Below are positions 1,299-40,000 of a DNA stretch of 64,000 nucleotides, piece after piece; within the stretch, counting starts at the first letter, position 1; the number at the start of each line of letters is the position of its first letter. The translations under genes and the position numbers were made by a program. The stretch covers positions 96,001 through 160,000 of the IMG/VR virus record IMGVR_UViG_3300028591_000072; one strand, given 5' to 3'. Origin of the DNA: a virus (lineage: Duplodnaviria; Caudoviricetes). The notes under the pieces are model-generated. The model saw only the letters and a program-made list of their open reading frames with translations, was not told where the DNA came from and did not search any database.

Positions 1299-2443
1299 TT
1301 AAAGTAACAAAAGATATTGATGCTTTGTTTAAATTGGTTCGTTCAGCGATGGGAGCCCCTGTTCGTTCTGTTGAACTTACTGATGAACAATTATGTGATT
1401 TATTGGAAATAGCCATGCAAGATTATTCTTCTGCCGTACAAAACGAAATAATCGCCAACCAGTGGCTTGGTTTTTATGGTAAAAACGTTACCAACGCAAA
1501 AGAACTTATGTATGGTTTTATGGTAAGAAGTCTTGATTTAACAAAAGACTATGGCGCTTGGTTTTCGAAACAAGTTGGTCTTCAGACAATAAAAAGTGGT
1601 GATTATTGGGAACTTAAAAAGGATTTCGTTACAATTGAATCAGGAAAACAGGTTTATGTAATACCATCAGGAAGAACAATTAACAAAGTCATGTATGTAA
1701 ATCCTCCTATGACAGATACTGCATTATTTGCAAACTATATGGGTGGAGGAGTTGGTTTTATGCCAGGACTTGGACAAGTTGGTGCAGGATATGGATATGG
1801 CGGAGGACTTGGTGGATTCTATACAACACAAGCAATGGATGTTGCTTATATGGCCGCAGATTTGAATTTTAAGAGCAGATTATTTAGGGGTGACCTTACA
1901 TATAAGGTAACAGCAGGTCCTGACGGTACACATTTATTGCATTTAATGTCAACCCCTGGAAGTAAATTGTCATTTGGATTCGCAGGTGCAGGTGTAAATG
2001 GCGGAATTGGGCTTATCGGGTGTGAGGTTTGGTACACATATTACGACACTTCAAATGGAGATGAAGATGAATGTATGTTATATCACGCAGATGACGTTAT
2101 TTTAAGTCCTGACCAAGTTCCTATGGAAAATATGCAATATGAATTCCTTAACGAACCAGCAAAAGTCATAGTTCGTCAATTATTAATTGCAAAGGCAAAG
2201 CAAACTTTGGGACTCATAAGAGGTAAATTCTCAGGAAAAGTTAACATTCCTCAGGCAGAGATGACAATGGATTACCAAATGTTAATTCAACAAGGTAAAG
2301 AGGAATATGATGCCGCAATGGAAGCATTAATGAAACGTCTTGAAAGAATGAGGCCTGTTAATATGATGAAAGAACAAGCCGAATTAATGGAAAATAATGT
2401 AAAATTACAGCAATATACCCCATTGGGAATATATGTAATATAA
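1295..2443 (+). CDS. Neck protein (T4 gp13-like)
   Basis: N-terminal MGAPVRSVELTDEQL and C-terminal AKAKQTLGLIRGKFSG...GKEE motifs are typical of gp13-like neck proteins. Confidence 0.75.
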   Translation: MIKVTKDIDALFKLVRSAMGAPVRSVELTDEQLCDLLEIAMQDYSSAVQNEIIANQWLGFYGKNVTNAKELMYGFMVRSLDLTKDYGAWFSKQVGLQTIKSGDYWELKKDFVTIESGKQVYVIPSGRTINKVMYVNPPMTDTALFANYMGGGVGFMPGLGQVGAGYGYGGGLGGFYTTQAMDVAYMAADLNFKSRLFRGDLTYKVTAGPDGTHLLHLMSTPGSKLSFGFAGAGVNGGIGLIGCEVWYTYYDTSNGDEDECMLYHADDVILSPDQVPMENMQYEFLNEPAKVIVRQLLIAKAKQTLGLIRGKFSGKVNIPQAEMTMDYQMLIQQGKEEYDAAMEALMKRLERMRPVNMMKEQAELMENNVKLQQYTPLGIYVI

Positions 2444-2458
2444 CAATCAGAAACAGAA

Positions 2459-3385
2459 ATGAAATTAGATTTTAATGACATAAAATATTTGGTTAACGAA
2501 TGTGTTAAGAAAATCATATCTGAAAGAATTAGCGATAAAACATATCATTTTACGTCTTTTTCTTCTTGCATAAATATTCTTAAAAACAATGAGTTTAAAT
2601 TGACATTATCTTCAAATTCATCAGATGCGTATGACAATAAACGCTTATTCTATTTATCAACACAACGAGGTAGAAGCAAAGACATTGGATATGCAGGACA
2701 TTTGGGAAGTTGTATACGAATTGAAATAAATGGCAACGAAATATCACAAAAATATAATGGTAAGCCTATAGATTATTGGGGAACGATGGGAAAACAAGCA
2801 TATTACAAGCCAGAAAACGATTCAACATTTGGAAAAGGATTTACAAAGTCAAAAAAAACGCACCATAATTTCGAAATGGAAGACAGGATTTTCTCATATA
2901 CTCCAACAATTGAAAACGCATCTAAATATATTTCAAGAATTGATGTTTATTTGAGCGGACAAAGAAAAGATTTAGCCGAGAAAGAAAAAGATGATGCAAT
3001 TACAATTTTAGTACTATCAAAAAGAAATTCAATACCAGTTTTTGTATACACTGACATCAAAGATTTTAATTTTATGACAGATAATACCATAAATTCAGAA
3101 CTTGAGCAACTTTATAAAAATGATTTTCAAAGCAAGACAGAAGTTGGATTCGAAGATTATGATAGAATTAAAATATGGAGAGAAATGAAAAAAAAAGGAA
3201 CATTTGTTAATATCTTAGAACAATTGATGAATGTTTATACATTAGGTAAAATATACACCAAAAATAATGAAATATATAAAACGGTTTCATCACTATTTAA
3301 ACAATTTGGATTAGAAAAATATAAAAATGATTTAATTAAGGGAACTATATACCTGATGGCACAAAGTCAGTCTGATAAAGGCTGA
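2459..3385 (+). CDS. Putative ADP-ribosyltransferase-fold virion protein with shared leader; C-terminus cut by IS insertion
   Basis: Leader IKYLVNECVKKIISE; YHFTS...YLSTQR...EMEDRI pattern. The last ~14 codons are read from the IS inverted repeat starting at 3340. Confidence 0.5.
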   Translation: MKLDFNDIKYLVNECVKKIISERISDKTYHFTSFSSCINILKNNEFKLTLSSNSSDAYDNKRLFYLSTQRGRSKDIGYAGHLGSCIRIEINGNEISQKYNGKPIDYWGTMGKQAYYKPENDSTFGKGFTKSKKTHHNFEMEDRIFSYTPTIENASKYISRIDVYLSGQRKDLAEKEKDDAITILVLSKRNSIPVFVYTDIKDFNFMTDNTINSELEQLYKNDFQSKTEVGFEDYDRIKIWREMKKKGTFVNILEQLMNVYTLGKIYTKNNEIYKTVSSLFKQFGLEKYKNDLIKGTIYLMAQSQSDKG

Positions 3386-3392
3386 CTTTTTT
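3363..3392. terminator. Bidirectional intrinsic terminator (AAAGTCAG family)
   Basis: AAAGTCAGTC-TGATAAA-GGCTGACTTTTTT; the same stem occurs at 28381 and 36323. Confidence 0.75.
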
Positions 3393-3393
3393 G

Positions 3394-3777
3394 CTACGAA
3401 GCAAACTTTATCCCATTACCTTGTGAGAAATTGTAAAATGCTTCAATAAAGTAATCATAATCTTCTTCGGAAATGTTATTGGTTTCTTTAAGCATATTCA
3501 GCACCTCTACATCACCTATTTTTGTTACATCACCTATTGTTATAAATCCTCCAATTGCTGCAAAAGACAAAACCACAGACATCTTTTTTCTGTATGAAAT
3601 CGTATTATCTGTAATAAAGTCTGTAATATTCCACCATTTAGATGGCTTGCTGTTATTATCTTTTGCAATGATTATAGCATTTTTTGCAAAATGTTCCATC
3701 ACTTCAATTAAAAGGTTGCTTTCGCAATAAGTCGTTAGTTCATGTGCTGAACTTGGTGTAATGTATAGTATATCCAT
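3394..3777 (-). CDS. Hypothetical passenger protein
   Basis: ORF of 127 aa from the ATG at 3777. The track start at 3795 lies inside a TATCTTTGCA promoter box. Confidence 0.65.
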   Translation of the reverse strand: MDILYITPSSAHELTTYCESNLLIEVMEHFAKNAIIIAKDNNSKPSKWWNITDFITDNTISYRKKMSVVLSFAAIGGFITIGDVTKIGDVEVLNMLKETNNISEEDYDYFIEAFYNFSQGNGIKFAS

Positions 3778-3790
3778 ATCAACTTTTTCT

Positions 3791-3800
3791 TGCAAAGATA
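3791..3800 (-). promoter_or_regulatory. Bacteroidota-type -7 promoter box TATCTTTGCA
   Basis: Matches TAnnTTTG, 13 nt upstream of the ATG at 3777, back-to-back with the late motif at 3800-3808. Confidence 0.55.
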
Positions 3801-3825
3801 CTATTTATTTGAAAAATAGATATAA

Positions 3826-4110
3826 ATGAAGAAAGAATTTGAAGATATTATCAAGGAAAGTGTTAGAAGCGTTCTTTACGAAATGGATATTGTTCCTACA
3901 AACAAACATGGAGAAACAAATCTTGTAAAAAAGCAATCAATTAATGCATGGATAATGATATATCGCTTAATGGATAATATAAAAGTTGTAATGGATAATC
4001 AATATAAGTCAAAGAACGGTAACATTACAAACAAAGATGTAGATGGAATTATAGACTATTTATACAACAGTCTTCAAAATGTAACAAAGAACACGATTGG
4101 AGAAAAATAA
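3826..4110 (+). CDS. Hypothetical protein with shared leader (IS passenger)
   Basis: MKKEFEDIIKESVRSVLYE; late motif at 3800-3808. Confidence 0.75.
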   Translation: MKKEFEDIIKESVRSVLYEMDIVPTNKHGETNLVKKQSINAWIMIYRLMDNIKVVMDNQYKSKNGNITNKDVDGIIDYLYNSLQNVTKNTIGEK

Positions 4111-4135
4111 CCAAGAAATAAAAGAGAATAGAAAT

Positions 4136-4441
4136 ATGAACAAGAAACAAAGAATTAGAATAAACGAGAACCAATTAAGGCAAATCGTTAGCGAATCCGT
4201 GAAAAGAATTTTAAGAGAAAACGATGATTTCACACCACATGGATATATGACGAAATCAAATCTTGGAGGAACCGAAGTACAAATTAGCAATGATGGTTCT
4301 GCGGCAAGATTTAGAAACAATTACGGAACGCCAGACAAACCGACTGATTGGCTCGAAATTGAATTTGACGAAGAAGGCGTTGCTTATGTTACTTTACCAA
4401 ATGGTAGCCAAGAAAGGTTAGACAATTATATGAGATATTAA
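4136..4441 (+). CDS. Hypothetical protein with shared leader (IS passenger)
   Basis: MNKKQRIRINENQLRQIVSESVKRILRE. Start placed at 4136 by similarity to the N-terminus of 27838. Confidence 0.75.
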   Translation: MNKKQRIRINENQLRQIVSESVKRILRENDDFTPHGYMTKSNLGGTEVQISNDGSAARFRNNYGTPDKPTDWLEIEFDEEGVAYVTLPNGSQERLDNYMRY

Positions 4442-5373
4442 GCAGTACACTTAACAACTTTCACATCCTCGAATGTAACGACATTCAAGGCGTGTTCCAT
4501 AAGGGCAGCGAACCTTTCGCCGCCCTTCTTTTTTCTATTGTTGTAGCGAAAAACCGCCTCGTCAATGTAACGCTGGATATAGTAGCGTGAAACAAAGTGG
4601 TATGTGCCATAAACCATACGCTTGAATTGTCCCCAAAAGCCCTCAATCGTGTTGGTGTACTTGCGTCCCACGGCAAACTCCTTTTGGCTGTGGTTGACAA
4701 TCTCCCTGACATACCCGTTGTCATTCAGGTTGCAGTAAATGTTGGTTTCGTCAGTATAAACCACCGAACCAACCTTAATATGGCTCTTGATAATAGGCAT
4801 AAGCGTTGCGCTCCTTGTATCCTCAACCTTGATGGCAAACACATTGCCTTCCCTTTGTGCCATACCGAATACGGGTGTCTTTGTCTTGGTGCTTCTGCCT
4901 TGCGTACCCTCAACCTTCTTGCTTTCGTGCTTGTTGGTTTCCCTACCACCAACATAGGTTTCGTCAATCTCAACCTCGTCCTCAAGGATTGGTGCTGATT
5001 GGGTAAAGGTGGTGCGAATCTTGTGGAGCATAAACCAAGCGGTTTTTTGTGTCACACCCAAGTCAATGGCTGCTTGCTTGGATGAAACGCCCTTGGAGTG
5101 GGTTGACATAAGGAAAATGGCTCCAAACCACTTGTATAGGGGTAATTTGGTGTCTTGGAAGATGGTTTCCTGAAGGATTGAGAATGATGAGCCACACTCA
5201 CGGCACTTGAAGCGTCCGTCACCACGGCGATATGGGTGCATGCCACCGCAATACGGGCAAGCAACAAGTCCGTCAGGGTAGATTTGTTCCTCAATGAACT
5301 TTAGGCAGGTGGCTTTGTCCCGGAAATGGCGGAAGATTTGAGGAAGGGAGTTGAAATGGGCAAGGTTAATCAT
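4438..5373 (-). CDS. IS1595-family (ISXO2-like) DDE transposase
   Basis: Zinc ribbon CPYC...CREC, VEIDETYVGG, VYTDE, TNTIEGFW and RYIDE..FRYNNR; visibly more GC-rich than the phage backbone. Confidence 0.93.
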   Translation of the reverse strand: MINLAHFNSLPQIFRHFRDKATCLKFIEEQIYPDGLVACPYCGGMHPYRRGDGRFKCRECGSSFSILQETIFQDTKLPLYKWFGAIFLMSTHSKGVSSKQAAIDLGVTQKTAWFMLHKIRTTFTQSAPILEDEVEIDETYVGGRETNKHESKKVEGTQGRSTKTKTPVFGMAQREGNVFAIKVEDTRSATLMPIIKSHIKVGSVVYTDETNIYCNLNDNGYVREIVNHSQKEFAVGRKYTNTIEGFWGQFKRMVYGTYHFVSRYYIQRYIDEAVFRYNNRKKKGGERFAALMEHALNVVTFEDVKVVKCTA

Positions 5374-5603
5374 AGCAATTCAGGTTGGTTACACTTATTT
5401 ATAGTGTAGAATATACAATTTTTCAACCTGAAAAACCAGTTTTTTAACTGAAAATCAGAAATTTCTTCCTAATTTTGTGCCATCATGTACATAGTTCCCA
5501 AAAATTTAAGACGTGACAAAGCTTCGCAACGATAAGCGTTTAGAATGCTGAAATTAAGTGGCTTGTTTTTCTTTTTTATTCTAAATAATTTCATAATTCA
5601 ATT

Positions 5604-5822
5604 TTAATTTGTTGAGCAAGTTACAACCCAATCACCATAATTTGGCGGCATTGGATAAGTTCTTGTTGGCTTAAAAATGTTTGGCTCTAACTGGTCATAA
5701 TAAGGAAATGTTTGTTGTTTCTTATCGTTTAAATCACTAAAATCTTTCATTGCAAGCATTTCTGCAAGTGTTCTTTTGTCACATTGCATGTATCTTTCTA
5801 CTTTTTCTTCAAATGTTTCCAT
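5604..5822 (-). CDS. Hypothetical protein
   Basis: 72-aa ORF preceded by TTGACT-N17-TATTAT (5867-5839). Confidence 0.65.
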   Translation of the reverse strand: METFEEKVERYMQCDKRTLAEMLAMKDFSDLNDKKQQTFPYYDQLEPNIFKPTRTYPMPPNYGDWVVTCSTN

Positions 5823-5947
5823 AATTAATATGTTTTATATAATATACAAAAAAATATTTAAAGTCAAAAACTATTTATACATAGTGTATTATGTTCACTT
5901 TAAACATAATAATATTATATTATTAAATAACAATTAAATTAATTAGC

Positions 5948-8900
5948 ATGGCAAATAACAATCAAACTATATTTCAAAGATTAACTGATGTATTTAGGGG
6001 TTCAAATAGCAATTCAGTTCCTAAAGCAGTACAAACGTCAAAAAGTTTTGATGAAAGGAACGAAGTGCTTTTTTCGACAAATGACAGGGCTGAATATGAA
6101 AGAAAATTAGAAACATTTAAACAGCAAAAATATTTAGCATATCAATGGAAAAGGGCAGGCGCTGACAATTCCATGGAAAGTTTGGCCGGATATAATGCCG
6201 TTAAATTAATGTATCGTGACGTTGACCTTATGGATGGGACTTGTGAAATTGGAAGTGCTCTTGATATTATATCAGAAGAGGCTTGTTTGGATGGTGATAC
6301 ACAAATAAAATTATTAAACGGAAAAGTTTTTACAATCAAAGAATTGTATAATATGCGTTGTAAAGATTTTTGGGTTTATTCTGTTGACGAAAATGGAATT
6401 TGTATGCCATCGCACGTTGATAGTGTTATTTATAAGGGTAAAAAAAACATTATAGAAATAACGCTTGACGATGATACTGTGATAAAAATTACGCCAGACC
6501 ATAAATTAATGTTGTCAAATTGTGAATGGAAAGAGGCATCTGATTTGGTTGAAGGTGATTCTTTAATGTCAATATATGACTCAAAGGATAATTTAGGATA
6601 TGAACAAATCATATCTTCTACCGAGTATAAAAAAAGGCCAACACATCGTGTTGTTGCTGAAAACGTTTTAATTGATGAAAAAACGATTTTATTGGAAAAA
6701 AACACAAATAACCAAAAAATAGTTATTCATCATAACACATTTAATAAATCGAACAATGACCCATCTGCATTGACATATATGTATTGGGATGAACATCAAA
6801 AATTACACACAGATTTAAATAAAAAAAGATGGGAAAATAAAGAATGGGCTGATAAGATGAAAAAAATATTTTCAAAAACAGCCAAAAAAACATGGAAAGA
6901 ACAAAGAAATAATTTCATAGAAAAATTTAAAATCGCTCAAAAAAAACGTATTGAAAAAATGAGCGAAGAAGAACGTATTAAATATTTCGGGAGAAAAGGG
7001 AAAAATAATGGTATGTTTGGTATACATAGATATGGCAAAAGCAATCCAAACTATAATAAAACAGTAAGCAGAATAAATAATATAAATGAAAAAGAATACA
7101 TTGATACAATTTTAAATAACGGTGGAAGGAAAGAATTAAAAAATAAGTTTAATTTGACAAAAAATGACGTTATTGAATATAATAGGTATTTATGTAAAAA
7201 ATACAAAATAAATAATATTTTTAATTTAAAATTTAACGATGAAATCTTTACGAAAATTAAAGAAATGATTATAAATAACCCATCTTTAACTCTATCTGAA
7301 ATTTCAAAAAATATTAACATATCAAAAAACACAATTAGCACAATATTAAAAAAACACGATACATCATTTAAAGATATACAAATAAAAAGTGACGTTTGGA
7401 AATATTATAAAGTTGACGAAAAAGAATATATTAATACGATTGCTTATTTAGACACTTATAATTTTAATGAAAAGTTATCAAATAAATTTAATTTAACAAA
7501 AAAACAGATTTCAAGGTTAAATAAAGAAATATTAAAAAAATACGATTTAAAAAGAATTGACCATTTAAAATATGTATTTAACGAAAATTATAAAATTTCA
7601 AAAATTAAGAAACTTATTTCCTATGGAAAAAATAAAAGTGAAATCTTAAAAGAATTATCATTATCAAATTTTCATCTTTTACAAATATGTAAAGAGAACG
7701 GATATAAAGATTATCAAGATTTAAAAAAATCATTATATAACCACAGAATTAAATCAATAAGAAAAATAGAAGAAGAAAGCGATGTATTTGATTTATTGAA
7801 TTCATCAACAAACAATTGTTTTGCAATAAAATGTAACAATGGACATATAATATCGCATAATTGCCCAATTAATTCTGAAGGATTAATGATTAACATATAT
7901 TCAAAGTCAAAAAGAACAAAGTCAATACTAGAAGATTTATTTGTAAACAGGTTACACATTTATACTGAGTTACCAATGATTGCCCGTCACGTAACAAAAT
8001 ACGGAAATACATTTATGCTTTTGAATATAGACAAGTCAAATGGCGTAATGGGGTGGATGATGATGCCTGTTTATGAGGTTGATAGGGAAGAAAACGGATA
8101 TGGGTCAACATACACACAAACAGTTCCACGTCAAACAACTGACATAAAACCTGACGAAATAAGGTTTGTATGGAAAGGGCACAACGGAGATAATGCTTAT
8201 TTCAATTGGCAAGTGGCACATTTTAGATTGCTAAACGATTCGTTTTTCCTACCTTATGGCGTATCAATGCTTCATAAAGCACGTAGAGCGTGGAGAATGT
8301 GGTCAATGATGGAAGATGCAATGCTTATTTGGAGATTAGATAAGGCAATTGAAAGACGTGTTTATAAAGTATATGTTGGCGCAATTGACGATGCTGACGT
8401 TCCTGCATACATAAACGAAATTGCAAATAATTTTAAAAGAACACAAATAATAGACCCAGTTACGGGTCAGGTTGATTTAAGAAAAAACTTTTTAGACGTT
8501 TCAAGCGACTATTTCATTCCTGTAAGAAGAGAGGATGCCCCAAATCCAATTGAAACATTACAGGCGGCAAACAGCCAAGTTCAAATGGAGGACATTGAAT
8601 ACATGCAAAATAAAATTTTTGCAGCAATGAGAGTTCCAAAAACTTTTTTAAATTTCCAAGAAGCGCAAGGTAAAGGCCAGAATCTTTCATTTATGGATGT
8701 CAGGTTTGCAAGAATGATTGTAAGAATACAACAATTTTTGTTAATGGAACTTAACAAAATAGCAATGATACATCTATACTTAATGGGGCTTTCAGATGAA
8801 ATAGGAAACTTTTCATTAACTCTAAACAGCCCATCAACAGTAATAGAAGGACAAGAACTTGAAGATTTACAAAAACGTCTAACAGCAATGCAAACAGCGC

Positions 8901-9637
8901 TTGCTGACCCAGGAACCGGTATTCCAATGATGTCAATGCATAGAGCACTTAAAAAGATAATGAAAATGAGTGACGAAGAAATAAGGGACATGTTCAATGA
9001 AATCCGTTTGGAAAAAGCAATGGCTGCTGAATTAGCTGCAACGCCTAACATAATAAAACATTCAGGAATGTTTGACGTAACAGATAGAATATATGGGGAC
9101 TATGCGGCAATGCATGGAGGTGGAACGCAGCAACAACAAGATAGCGAAAATGACGGAATGGGCGGCGGAGGAGGTGGCCCAATTGGCGGTGGTTTAGGCG
9201 GCGGAGATTTTGACATTGGAGAACCAGGTTCTGATACAGAAGGTGAACTTGGAGGCGAAGAAGGAGAAACCGACATGGAAAGTGCGCCAAATGCCGACAA
9301 CGGAACGCCATTAAATGAGCAAAAATTAAATACGACAAAATCATTTACAAAAAAATATTTTGAAAACATTAACGAAAACAAGTCACAATTAAAAAAAGCG
9401 CCAACTTCTTATTTTGACTTATATATGAATCTAATATCAGAAAGTCAAAAAGAAGAAGATGAAGTTGATGATGTTATTGATTACGACATTAAAAATAAAA
9501 CTTTACAAGAAAACATTAAAAGCATTTGCGATAAAATAGATTCTCTTATTGATGAGGATGAAATAGCACGTGAAAATTTAATAAATGAGGCCATATCCGA
9601 TTTAAATACGATTTCAGGTGAAACACTTAATGAATAA
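5948..9637 (+). CDS. Portal protein (T4 gp20-like) containing an intein
   Basis: Motifs ALDIISEEA, VAHFRL, GVSMLHKARR, MEDAMLIWR...ERRVYKVYVG, DYFIPVR and DIEYMQNKIFAAMRVPK; late motif at 5869-5879. Confidence 0.92.
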   Translation: MANNNQTIFQRLTDVFRGSNSNSVPKAVQTSKSFDERNEVLFSTNDRAEYERKLETFKQQKYLAYQWKRAGADNSMESLAGYNAVKLMYRDVDLMDGTCEIGSALDIISEEACLDGDTQIKLLNGKVFTIKELYNMRCKDFWVYSVDENGICMPSHVDSVIYKGKKNIIEITLDDDTVIKITPDHKLMLSNCEWKEASDLVEGDSLMSIYDSKDNLGYEQIISSTEYKKRPTHRVVAENVLIDEKTILLEKNTNNQKIVIHHNTFNKSNNDPSALTYMYWDEHQKLHTDLNKKRWENKEWADKMKKIFSKTAKKTWKEQRNNFIEKFKIAQKKRIEKMSEEERIKYFGRKGKNNGMFGIHRYGKSNPNYNKTVSRINNINEKEYIDTILNNGGRKELKNKFNLTKNDVIEYNRYLCKKYKINNIFNLKFNDEIFTKIKEMIINNPSLTLSEISKNINISKNTISTILKKHDTSFKDIQIKSDVWKYYKVDEKEYINTIAYLDTYNFNEKLSNKFNLTKKQISRLNKEILKKYDLKRIDHLKYVFNENYKISKIKKLISYGKNKSEILKELSLSNFHLLQICKENGYKDYQDLKKSLYNHRIKSIRKIEEESDVFDLLNSSTNNCFAIKCNNGHIISHNCPINSEGLMINIYSKSKRTKSILEDLFVNRLHIYTELPMIARHVTKYGNTFMLLNIDKSNGVMGWMMMPVYEVDREENGYGSTYTQTVPRQTTDIKPDEIRFVWKGHNGDNAYFNWQVAHFRLLNDSFFLPYGVSMLHKARRAWRMWSMMEDAMLIWRLDKAIERRVYKVYVGAIDDADVPAYINEIANNFKRTQIIDPVTGQVDLRKNFLDVSSDYFIPVRREDAPNPIETLQAANSQVQMEDIEYMQNKIFAAMRVPKTFLNFQEAQGKGQNLSFMDVRFARMIVRIQQFLLMELNKIAMIHLYLMGLSDEIGNFSLTLNSPSTVIEGQELEDLQKRLTAMQTALADPGTGIPMMSMHRALKKIMKMSDEEIRDMFNEIRLEKAMAAELAATPNIIKHSGMFDVTDRIYGDYAAMHGGGTQQQQDSENDGMGGGGGGPIGGGLGGGDFDIGEPGSDTEGELGGEEGETDMESAPNADNGTPLNEQKLNTTKSFTKKYFENINENKSQLKKAPTSYFDLYMNLISESQKEEDEVDDVIDYDIKNKTLQENIKSICDKIDSLIDEDEIARENLINEAISDLNTISGETLNE
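6284..7861 (+). mobile_element. Intein (526 aa) with HNH endonuclease inside the portal gene
   Basis: Begins CLDGDTQI (C113), has block B ITPDH, ends VFDL...ISHN/C (C639). Internal HRVVAE...IHHNTFNKSNNDPSAL HNH motif and NUMOD3-like GKNNGMFG/GKSNPNY. Confidence 0.92.
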
Positions 9638-9666
9638 TAAACTATTTATAAAGAAAAAAGTTTAAA

Positions 9667-10578
9667 ATGGAAAATGCAATAAATTCTTTCAAGACAATAA
9701 AAGAAGTAGAAAATTATAAAAACGAAATAATTAAAGAGTGTAATGAAAGAATCAATTTTATAAAAATGATTCAAAAGGCAGATTATCTGTCAAATAGCCA
9801 ATTTGGGTACATAAAAGAATGTTTTGAGTCAATTTCTCCTGAATTATTTACGTCAAAAGGCGGAAAAAAAATATTAAACAAATATACATCTGTAATAAAA
9901 GAAAGCAATAATCTTTCAACAATGCATAGTATATGCGAAGCAATAAGAAAATCAGGAAAAGGAACGGATTCTTCGTTTGTTATTAATAAAATATTAGAAA
10001 GCAACAGTTCAAATATAGACAGGTCAACCTTGAAAAATGAAATAAAGTCATTAGGAATGATTTTGGCTGAAGGCTATTTGTATCTTGGAGAAAAAGCAAA
10101 TAATTTATTACCAAAAGAAAACAAGAAACTATATTCTGCAATTGGATATATTACAGAGAATAAGAGCAATTTGAAAAATATATCAGAATATACAAATGCA
10201 ATTGAAGTAATCAAGGAAAACATAGAAAACAAAGAAAAGGAAACAAACGTTTTTGAATCAAGAAATTTGGATGACTTAGCAAATGAATTGTTGGAAGAAT
10301 TCAACAAAAAATATTCAGAAACATTAAACGAAGAAGAAGCAAAGGTACTAAAGGAAATAGCTTCAAGCGAAAATCGTGAAGAAATATTTGAGAAATACAA
10401 GTCATTGTGTGCCGAATCAATTTTAGTCGCAAAGAAGTCATTTGAAGAAAAAGGTGATGAAAATTCAAGCAAAAGATTATCTTCAGTTCTCGAACAAGTG
10501 AATGGAAAAAAATATTCATTGGATACCGTTGGAGAAGATATTTGCAATTTAATAGAACTTTCAAATATTTTTGAATGA
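9667..10578 (+). CDS. Hypothetical head-associated protein
   Basis: Helical Glu/Lys-rich ORF directly after the portal; late motif at 9640-9650. Confidence 0.6.
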   Translation: MENAINSFKTIKEVENYKNEIIKECNERINFIKMIQKADYLSNSQFGYIKECFESISPELFTSKGGKKILNKYTSVIKESNNLSTMHSICEAIRKSGKGTDSSFVINKILESNSSNIDRSTLKNEIKSLGMILAEGYLYLGEKANNLLPKENKKLYSAIGYITENKSNLKNISEYTNAIEVIKENIENKEKETNVFESRNLDDLANELLEEFNKKYSETLNEEEAKVLKEIASSENREEIFEKYKSLCAESILVAKKSFEEKGDENSSKRLSSVLEQVNGKKYSLDTVGEDICNLIELSNIFE

Positions 10579-38535: not shown

Positions 38536-40000
38536 TTTTCCAAATATATTTAATTAATCCGCAATCCCATATTTTTATAAAACCAAGTTTGTCACAAATT
38601 TCTTTTTCTGTTAATGTGGTATCTATTTTATATTTTTTATATAAAATATTTTTTCTAAATCCAAATTTATGAAATCTTTTTTGCTCTCCACCTTTTATGT
38701 ATTTATAATCTGGCGGTGTGTACTTTTCAAAATTAAAACCAATTTTTGTATAAAAATTTCCAATTAAGTCATTAGACCATCTTCTATCAGCAAATGACTT
38801 TACTTCTTTTGGATTATATTTTTTAATAAAATAAGAAAAAAGTTTTCCTCCTACTCCACAACAAATTTTTGATGTATCCGTCGCATATCTGTTTAATTCC
38901 CATTTGTCACCATTCTTTTTTTCTTTTTTAAAAGTCATTACTCCAATTAATTCTCCTTTGTAAAAACATCCTAAATATACACTTGATTTTACTTCTCCTT
39001 GAATGTGAAATGAGTTTAAGAATTGCTTTGATTCACTATATGTTATATCTTTTACATTGCAATTTCTTGCATAAATTTTATCATTTGTTGTTTTGTTTAA
39101 AATATGAGAAATCTTATTTAACACTATTTCTTTTTTATAAAGATATTCATCTTCAAATATTTGAATTAGTCTTATACCATTATTTTTACACATTTCTGTT
39201 TTTTCCAAATGATAATTTTTATTTTTTATACATTTTTCAGAATGCCAAAAAAGTCCATTATATTCAATTCCTATTTTATATTTTGGAATGTAGATATCTA
39301 TTTCAAATGGCTTAATAGATTCTCTATCATTTTTTATAACATTATCTTTTCCTATTAATGAAACAATGTATTCGTAAATTTCATTTTCTGGCTTTGAAAT
39401 TTTAGAAAAGCAAGAAGGACATCCTCCTTGTGGCGATGTTAAATGGTCACACGCAATTTTTTCAAACTCAGTACCACAATCATTACATTTTATTGTAATT
39501 TTAGAATGGCTATTTTCATATTCTTTTTCAATATATGGAAATGAATATTTTTCGCCAAATCTATTTGTTGATTCTTTTATAAAATGTGAAAAATCATTTT
39601 TTCTATATTCTGAAGCATATTTTTTTCCACACAACGGGCATCCTTGTCCTCTTAAATGATTATTAGCTGCTTGTTCAAAATCGCCATGAATTTTACAAGT
39701 AATAATAACTTTACTTCTTTTATTTACATATTTAGTTTTTGAATAATCGTACCTGTTACCGTGAACACTTATTGCTTTTTCAATAAAAGATTCAGAATCT
39801 CTCTTTTTTAACCCAACACATGAAGGGCATCCATTTCCATTAAGATGTGAGTACGGCTTTTGCCAAAACTCGCCATGCTTAGGACATATTATACAGACTT
39901 TTGTTTGTGAATTAACATAATAAGCCTTAGAATAATCATATTTATTTCCGTGTATTAATTTTGCTTTTTCAATAAAAATTTCAGTATTATATTTTTCCAT
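38528..40000 (-). CDS. Putative homing endonuclease (zinc repeats, Vsr-like domain, GNAT-like C-terminus) splitting the DNA polymerase
   Basis: EIDIYIP..KIGIEYNGLFWHS; FLN.FHIQG...WELNRYA...SFADRRWS...IWDCG; own late motif at 40028-40037. Confidence 0.8.
   Translation of the reverse strand: MEKYNTEIFIEKAKLIHGNKYDYSKAYYVNSQTKVCIICPKHGEFWQKPYSHLNGNGCPSCVGLKKRDSESFIEKAISVHGNRYDYSKTKYVNKRSKVIITCKIHGDFEQAANNHLRGQGCPLCGKKYASEYRKNDFSHFIKESTNRFGEKYSFPYIEKEYENSHSKITIKCNDCGTEFEKIACDHLTSPQGGCPSCFSKISKPENEIYEYIVSLIGKDNVIKNDRESIKPFEIDIYIPKYKIGIEYNGLFWHSEKCIKNKNYHLEKTEMCKNNGIRLIQIFEDEYLYKKEIVLNKISHILNKTTNDKIYARNCNVKDITYSESKQFLNSFHIQGEVKSSVYLGCFYKGELIGVMTFKKEKKNGDKWELNRYATDTSKICCGVGGKLFSYFIKKYNPKEVKSFADRRWSNDLIGNFYTKIGFNFEKYTPPDYKYIKGGEQKRFHKFGFRKNILYKKYKIDTTLTEKEICDKLGFIKIWDCGLIKYIWKNE

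Follow-up and report, generated by a model that had tools for sequence, protein, structure and literature searches.

The locus described here raises a question with two parts: whether a transposase gene and the AT-rich DNA beside it in a phage genome form a single mobile unit and, if they do, whether the genes in that DNA belong to the unit or to the phage. The locus lies in a 64-kb window (the whole stretch of DNA analysed, bases 96001–160000 of a 302,581-bp virus record that is 82% complete by CheckV), and the segment in question spans window positions 3340–5499, about 2.2 kb. A transporter insertion sequence (tIS) is an insertion sequence (IS) that transports passenger genes enclosed by its inverted repeats. 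We find that segment 3340–5499 is very probably a tIS of the IS1595 family, carried by a jumbo phage of rumen Bacteroidales. Comparison with related elements further indicates that the passengers belong to the element and not to the phage locus in which it sits, between a head-tail adaptor-like gene and a portal-like gene.

The segment is bounded by inverted-repeat arms of 31 nt that are 87% complementary (27/31), with a 26-nt core matching at 24 of 26 positions. This core has only two sites in the window, and none of 100 shuffles gave a match. The ends, the transposase and its upstream stretch are arranged as follows.

3340–3370, plus strand: left (distal) terminal inverted repeat, the arm pairing with 5469–5499; this end and the adjoining hairpin are 94.5% identical in loci L089/L174
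3366–3392, plus strand: intrinsic-terminator-like hairpin with T-run, starting within the left repeat, found by direct folding
4438–5373, minus strand: IS1595-family transposase, 311 amino acids (aa), intact (PF12762, PF12760, NF033547)
5374–5468, minus strand: stretch upstream of the transposase, 94% identical in nucleotide sequence to L090 and L089 as far as the repeat
5469–5499, minus strand: right (proximal) terminal inverted repeat, the arm pairing with 3340–3370

A preliminary description of this DNA had reported the 24/26 repeats enclosing a GC-richer transposase and about 1.07 kb of AT-rich DNA, and had called the whole a passenger-carrying IS1595 element. Both statements hold: the transposase matches the family profiles well above threshold (PF12762, 151 bits, cut-off 27; NF033547, 202 bits, cut-off 75), and three passenger open reading frames (ORFs) lie inside the repeats. 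The GC content is 0.473 for the transposase (0.45–0.49 along its length) versus 0.314 for the passenger stretch, 3366–4437. In the N-terminal zinc-ribbon (PF12760, 35.8 bits), C39, C42, C57 and C60 are invariant in the alignment. D137, D208, N241 and E244, assigned by motif alone, fall in conserved motifs, and the related locus L241 has N at the first of these positions. The element ends read GGGAACTAT here and GGTAATTAT in relatives. They begin GGnAAyTAT, which we take to be like the end consensus of ISNwi1 (ggnnatTAT); any subgroup or IS name is provisional. The 26-nt repeat also holds a TGGCAC-like stretch, and we considered it as a phage regulatory site; this candidate was rejected, as the same ends bound duplication-flanked elements in bacteria.

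To place the window copy among its relatives, we took transposase relatives from bacterial genomes and viral contigs and ran an automated search for inverted repeats over 160 loci. The nearest transposase on an uncultured Bacteroidales contig (L009, with TsaD and WYL/WCX genes adjoining) is 91% identical in amino acid sequence. Rumen-type viral contigs encode transposases of 98% (L089/L174) and 97% (L090) identity, and a 235-kb viral contig encodes one of 55% (L091). The same ends are found in all of these, and the complete elements among them are surrounded by perfect 8-bp duplications: CATATTTA around L009 (2801 bp), AAAAATTT around L090 (1485 bp) and TTTTAATT around L091 (2333 bp). The 160 loci yielded 62 inverted-repeat pairs, 36 of them with perfect 8-bp duplications and 0.4–2.8 kb of DNA beyond the transposase. 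The window copy, L089, L090 and L009 resemble one another from the proximal repeat as far as the transposase stop, where the similarity ends to the base; beyond the stop it returns only at the distal repeat, together with the hairpin in L089. This pattern, a core conserved up to the transposase stop and again from the distal repeat, combined with the duplications in relatives, identifies the element as a passenger-carrying IS1595 type, i.e., a tIS. Judged from these comparisons, IS1595 relatives transpose together with their passengers as one unit. The window copy probably arrived as a unit as well, and its transposase is presumably active. By analogy with the relatives, the intact zinc-ribbon/DDE transposase would act on the two ends of 26–31 nt and insert the whole unit with an 8-bp duplication.

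The hairpin at 3366–3392 (−19.6 kcal/mol, z −5.3 by direct folding) is absent from the list of a simple terminator scan, and similar hairpins follow the distal end in L222, L226 and L235. It had been described as a phage-family terminator abutting the left repeat. The hairpin is indeed there, but it is part of the distal end of the element, common to L089, and not a local phage terminator.

Around the window copy itself, the flanks are those given in the preliminary description; the 8-bp stretches differ (3/8 matching) and no duplication is present. Comparison with L187, a related locus, suggests why. Both flanking genes are truncated.

2459–3339, plus strand: left-flank ORF, 308 aa, truncated (about 363 aa in relatives); its own coding sequence ends at the repeat
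5500–5594, minus strand: start of the right-flank gene, about 31 codons, cut by the repeat (110 aa in relatives)

On the left, homology to the 363-aa protein of L187 ends at residue 294, which corresponds to base 3340, and the L187 protein runs for 66 residues more. On the right, the fragment is identical at 25 of 33 positions to the start of L187 7853–8185 (minus strand), and DNA homology to L187 begins at 5497. Since both flanking genes are cut at the repeats, both junctions are element-target joints; their target points differ, and the DNA that once lay between them is lost. The comparison thus indicates that the window copy lost adjacent phage DNA after insertion, and this loss, with the truncation of both neighbours, accounts for the missing duplication. 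A later rearrangement had been suspected in the preliminary description from the same absence, and the truncated genes now bear this out. The loss may have occurred by IS-mediated adjacent deletion, or by recombination between two direct copies; we favour neither route. Inversion or translocation within the recorded 302 kb was rejected in favour of deletion, as the 3′ parts of both truncated genes are not found elsewhere in the record; nor are transposase fragments. Inspection by eye revealed no pairing of the flanks of the window copy with the flanks of solo repeats in the same genome by matching 8-mers.

Between the transposase stop and the distal repeat lie three passenger genes and a divergent promoter region.

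3394–3777, minus strand: p133, 127 aa from an ATG at 3777, half of a conserved divergent pair (37 homologue clusters)
3778–3825, no strand assigned: divergent promoter region of 48 nt, with a −7 box for p133 and ACTATTTAT for p94
3826–4110, plus strand: p94, 94 aa, whose N-terminal helix resembles the leader; predicted to partner p133 (homologues, complex model)
4136–4441, plus strand: p101, a strict leader (about 4136–4222) followed by a variable payload, of the leader family; its stop overlaps the transposase stop by 4 nt

The absence of a duplication is also what one would expect if the segment were an accidental composite, in which 1.07 kb happens to separate a plain IS of about 1.1 kb from an unrelated solo repeat, with resident phage genes that were never mobilised in the interval. 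Solo repeats do occur in this genome (at 38708, 71860 and 90764), and the GC of the intervening DNA is phage-like (whole-phage GC 0.322). Several observations argue against such an arrangement. No repeat remnant lies beside the transposase stop. Since a gene is interrupted at the left repeat, what lies to the right of that repeat is not the rest of the gene. In relatives the locus lacks the passenger genes: across 50 related loci, the interval between adaptor (here 1295–2443, a phrog_211 match) and portal (here 5948–9637) holds various small genes, never p133, p94 or the p101 payload. The preliminary description had named the presence of genes 3826 and 4136 at this locus without the IS, together with other copies of the element that never include them, as what would speak against it, and related loci lack both genes. 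Finally, the p94–p133 module and the three-gene order recur elsewhere inside elements that are bounded by inverted repeats and flanked by duplications. The accidental composite is largely refuted, and we consider it very improbable.

The recurrence of the passengers is best seen from p133. We inspected eight distinct contexts of this gene. An IS1595 transposase lies directly beside the module in five (the window, L238, L241–244, L248–250 and L251–253), the module occurs without a transposase in two (L245, L257), and p133 stands alone in one (L254). The element in L238 (2099 bp, duplication CTTCTTTA) lies between LigA/ThrRS and sulfatase/IGPD genes. Its repeats are different from those of the window copy and its transposase is only 47% identical, yet its 94-aa/127-aa module shares 77.7% DNA identity with window 4064–3388. 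In L248 (2493 bp, duplication TAAGCTCG), the gene order is that of the window: transposase, convergent leader-tagged gene, p94 homologue and divergent p133 homologue. The three-gene set is also found in L251, a chromosomal locus beside genes for fucose isomerase and an FGGY kinase, and, in the absence of a transposase, in L245 and L257. The preliminary description had expected the same repeats at other loci with duplications of about 8 bp and varying leader-tagged cargo, and such copies exist. Its view of the cargo as phage-specific fails, since the 94-aa/127-aa pair and leader-tagged genes sit in duplication-flanked elements of bacterial chromosomes.

Transposases of the bacterial elements that share this layout are only 45–51% identical to that of the window, and the nearest transposase relatives (L009, L089, L090) lack p94 and p133. 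It follows from the latter that the window cargo is a mosaic whose modules come from different lineages. All copies have AT-rich passengers (GC 0.29–0.36) and a GC-richer transposase (0.41–0.49), even where the flanking bacterial DNA has a GC of 0.43–0.49; this contrast is a family trait and no sign of local capture. This tIS clade has a fixed layout, in Bacteroidales chromosomes and jumbo phages alike, in which a leader gene converges on the transposase stop and is followed by the p94/p133 pair, the hairpin and the distal repeat.

The p94/p133 pair is a conserved part of the cargo. The 37 homologue clusters of p133 show 54–89% identity, and homologues adjoin IS1595 transposases in L238, L241, L248 and L251; p94 homologues in L238, L241, L248 and L245 are 55–64% identical. 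A Bacteroidetes-type −7 box lies on the minus strand at 3791–3800, about 14 nt before the p133 ATG at 3777. One base beyond it, on the plus strand at 3800–3808, is ACTATTTAT, 26 nt before the p94 ATG at 3826. Genome-wide, ACTATTTAT occurs 57 times versus 16.6 expected (3.4-fold), and 31 of the 57 copies lie 20–34 nt before an ORF start. Further copies in the window are at 4055, 5870 and 349. The divergent promoter layout is the same in bacterial copies, and ACTATTTAT is found upstream of the p94 homologue in L250 (bacterial flanks), in L248 (flank context not settled) and in phage-like L245. Thus, of the promoters first reported, a host-type box and a divergent phage late motif, both are present, but the late-type motif, which also precedes the 94-aa gene in L250 and L248, is not exclusive to phage.

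AlphaFold2 models p133 as an alpha/beta domain (pLDDT 95.6). Fold searches gave no convincing match: the best E-value from Foldseek was 0.07, VIA Z did not exceed 4.3 and TM in the atlas stayed below 0.4. Weak tautomerase and GST-like hits were not trusted. The model of p94, of modest confidence (pLDDT 66), consists of three helices. For the two together, the complex model scores 0.77 (runs of 0.00, 0.77 and 0.82) versus 0.00 for the best control; the score mark is one reached by 58 of 80 solved complexes and by 2 of 110 mismatched pairs. Between-run agreement is at least 0%, and partner pLDDT at least 51. The predicted interface involves p94 residues 36–89, its most conserved stretch, and leaves the leader-like N-terminus free. 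On this basis p94 and p133 are predicted to form a complex, in a model that speaks to neither affinity nor function.

Such a pair could be a two-component conflict module by which the element is maintained in its carrier, through addiction, defence or counter-defence; the leader gene would then be a polymorphic effector that works with the pair. The conservation of the divergent pair across transposase lineages that are 45–51% identical fits this idea, as do the predicted binding (0.77 vs 0.00), the hypervariable payload behind a constant N-terminus, and the location of some copies beside the defence-type genes SduA_C, AAA_15/DUF3226 and DO-GTPase. Against it, neither PADLOC nor Pfam nor NCBIfam returns a match, no toxin-like fold was found for p133, and a defence-island neighbourhood is common for any mobile element. 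We regard a conflict module as rather unlikely.

The third passenger, p101, shares a short N-terminal tag with many other proteins of the phage. A strict leader of about 29 residues stands at the start of p101, whereas p94 has a leader-like N-terminus only; of the two leader-tagged genes in the preliminary description, that at 4136 is confirmed and that at 3826 is not. According to an iterated profile, the strict leader opens seven other genes of the phage and has one internal occurrence. The eight hits among proteins of this genome have unrelated C-terminal parts, and the leaders end in a hydrophobic-x-E motif. The payload of p101 is phage-like in character: its domain recurs as the C-terminus of a 375-aa protein in the same phage, and homologues lie in phage-type surroundings that have no IS. 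A leader-tagged gene is among the passengers of L089, L090, L091, L226, L227, L230 and L248, and also of a transposase-less cassette (L223); none of 33 more remote elements whose duplications are proven has one. We also note a 4-nt overlap, TTAA, of the convergent stops of transposase and leader gene (window 4438–4441, L089:1023–1026, L248:3104–3107), common to elements with transposases only 45% identical and unrelated payloads.

The payload after the leader differs in every copy. L248 and L250 share 99.5% identity over a stretch that starts at the distal repeat, takes in both small genes and reaches about codon 22 of the leader gene; past that point they are unrelated (divergence at L248:3565 vs L250:122). 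The outer flanks of the two part exactly at the repeat, so this is the same element at two sites. A third payload follows this leader in L257. Because the payload switches at the leader end in L248, L250 and L257, the leader marks a recombination boundary; payloads are probably exchanged by recombination with breakpoints at this point.

How the leader may act is suggested by analogy with phage T4, whose internal proteins IPI–III and Alt carry capsid-targeting sequences that are removed by the gp21 prohead protease. Like the T4 sequences, the leader is a short N-terminal tag on unrelated proteins with a hydrophobic-x-E end, and the phage encodes a prohead protease of the gp21 family (PF03420, 61.2 bits, genome 80761–81243). 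Unlike them, it is about 29 residues long rather than about 10, and also occurs internally and on genes of bacterial chromosomes. Our best guess, a speculative one, is that the leader serves as a capsid-targeting and cleavage tag and that the element spreads tagged effector genes. The hydrophobic-x-E end, the gp21-type protease and the presence of the tag on many unrelated phage proteins prompt this idea. If capsid loading is indeed what the tag does, the element would serve as a carrier of injected effectors.

It is also possible, as a strong form of the preliminary reading would have it, that the element is specialised for phage life altogether, its passengers being virion-packaged proteins with a late promoter and a capsid-targeting leader that the prohead protease removes; it would then move cassettes of injected effectors among jumbo phages, with chromosomal copies as dead-end escapes. 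At least seven phage-borne relatives have leader-tagged cargo, at least eight strict leader genes lie elsewhere in the phage, and ACTATTTAT precedes p94 and many other phage genes. Moreover, the leader end resembles what we take to be T4 cleavage sites in a phage that encodes a gp21-type protease, and the cargo is AT-rich even in bacterial copies. The chromosomal copies, however, are intact, have duplications, occupy differing sites and carry diverse payloads, which suggests activity in bacteria. The transposase has a bacterial-like GC (0.41–0.58), p94 and p133 look like a self-contained pair, and packaging and cleavage are postulated by analogy with T4. We consider phage specialisation unlikely, if far from negligible. 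A more elaborate scenario would combine a true capsid-loading leader with a late-type promoter used only during infection, such that an infecting jumbo phage would take up proteins of the chromosomal copies into its particles. The tag and promoter type seen on chromosomal copies either speak against a purely phage-internal role or point to this scenario, which we think quite improbable. If true, host-encoded loaded proteins would sabotage the phage from inside its virion, or reach the next cell, and payloads of this kind would be spread by the transposon among host and phage genomes and swapped at the leader boundary.

We return to the reading of segment 3340–5499 as a tIS that shuttles between jumbo phages and their hosts, against which several points weigh. 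Without a target duplication around the window copy, its transposition as a unit is deduced from relatives only. There is a single transposase copy in the 302-kb record, which is 82% complete. One of the three p94–p133 complex runs scored 0.00. The same tags on chromosomal copies are a poor fit with a purely virion-directed role. Finally, the cargo proteins have no family match in Pfam, PHROGs, NCBIfam or PADLOC and p133 has no fold match, so that functional statements on the cargo are all indirect.

The tIS reading is extended by derivatives within the same genome, which contains seven copies of the repeat. A transposase-less element of 646 bp (genome 64923–65568, L007:883–1528) has the same repeats, an 8-bp duplication, TTTTTATA, and a single ORF of 186 aa, which starts like a signal peptide and matches nothing in Pfam. 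Solo ends are found at 38708, 71860 and 90764. Behind the solo distal repeat at 38708 lies an ORF in which a homologue of the 240-aa protein encoded by the L223 cassette is joined in frame to a leader gene (L004:1501–2719, genome 38708–39926); this stretch looks like a decayed element whose cargo was retained in the phage. An exact-pattern scan of viral contigs located 14 further stretches with the repeat. These include a transposase-less cassette of 2045 bp that is the same in three contigs (L223/L225/L231) and has the duplication TTTATTTT, and two loci in which the repeat is fused to the last 30 or so transposase codons (L228:8624–8758, L230:2842–2966). Both of the latter look like stages of internal deletion that lead towards cassette-only elements. 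Element ends often abut, on the outside, a terminator hairpin with a T-run (genome 64923 and 90764; L223, L224, L227 and L230), which suggests either a target preference for T-runs that follow terminators or the survival of harmless insertions.

Non-autonomous IS derivatives are known as MICs and MITEs, for example the IS231-derived MIC231 of Bacillus cereus. Like these, the 646-bp and 2045-bp (L223) elements have the repeats of their parent tIS, an 8-bp duplication and passenger ORFs, and lack a transposase. In contrast, the phage cassettes derive from an IS1595 tIS and sit in phage genomes, with intermediates (L228, L230) visible.

An IS1595 tIS is in itself a known kind of element. Siguier, Gagnevin and Chandler (in 2009), ISfinder and TnPedia reportedly describe passenger-carrying IS1595 subgroups such as ISNwi1+ and ISPna2+. 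To our knowledge, insertion sequences are rare in virulent phage genomes. The tIS type is confined to the IS1595 and IS66 families (TnCentral preprint 10.1101/2021.05.26.445724). The window element resembles other IS1595 tIS in its single zinc-ribbon/DDE transposase, its short inverted repeats, the position of its passengers between the transposase and the distal repeat, and the AT-rich 8-bp target duplication, here seen in relatives. It differs in that its family occurs in lytic-type jumbo phages as well as in host chromosomes, and in its fixed three-gene layout, where the leader-tagged payload is hypervariable and the other two genes encode a conserved, predicted heterodimer. Our searches of the literature turned up no account of tIS in jumbo phages. 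We could not find described a tIS clade of jumbo phages and their hosts with fixed passengers, a leader-bounded payload and cassette-only phage derivatives.

These features bear on several questions. A group of jumbo phages of the rumen and their Bacteroidales hosts harbour a family of elements that looks active and has autonomous, cassette-only and solo-end forms, and its fixed gene set provides a concrete route by which genes can pass between large phages and hosts. Within a tIS family, recombination is seen at a defined module boundary. In addition, the same tag on small transposon-borne genes offers a way to study what a leader motif that is widespread in these phages does.

Some minor observations concern the phage itself. 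Window 2400–6400 has no match in the GenBank phage collection. Relatives of the structural genes of the phage are found on contigs of up to 393 kb. The portal-like gene contains an in-frame insert of about 1.58 kb (window 6286–7860) that is missing from the portal genes of relatives: the portal is 1229 aa long here versus 710 aa in L187, and DNA homology to L187 is confined to 5912–6285 and 7861–10000. The insert starts with Cys and ends with His-Asn followed by Cys, and resembles an intein with a homing-endonuclease-type middle.

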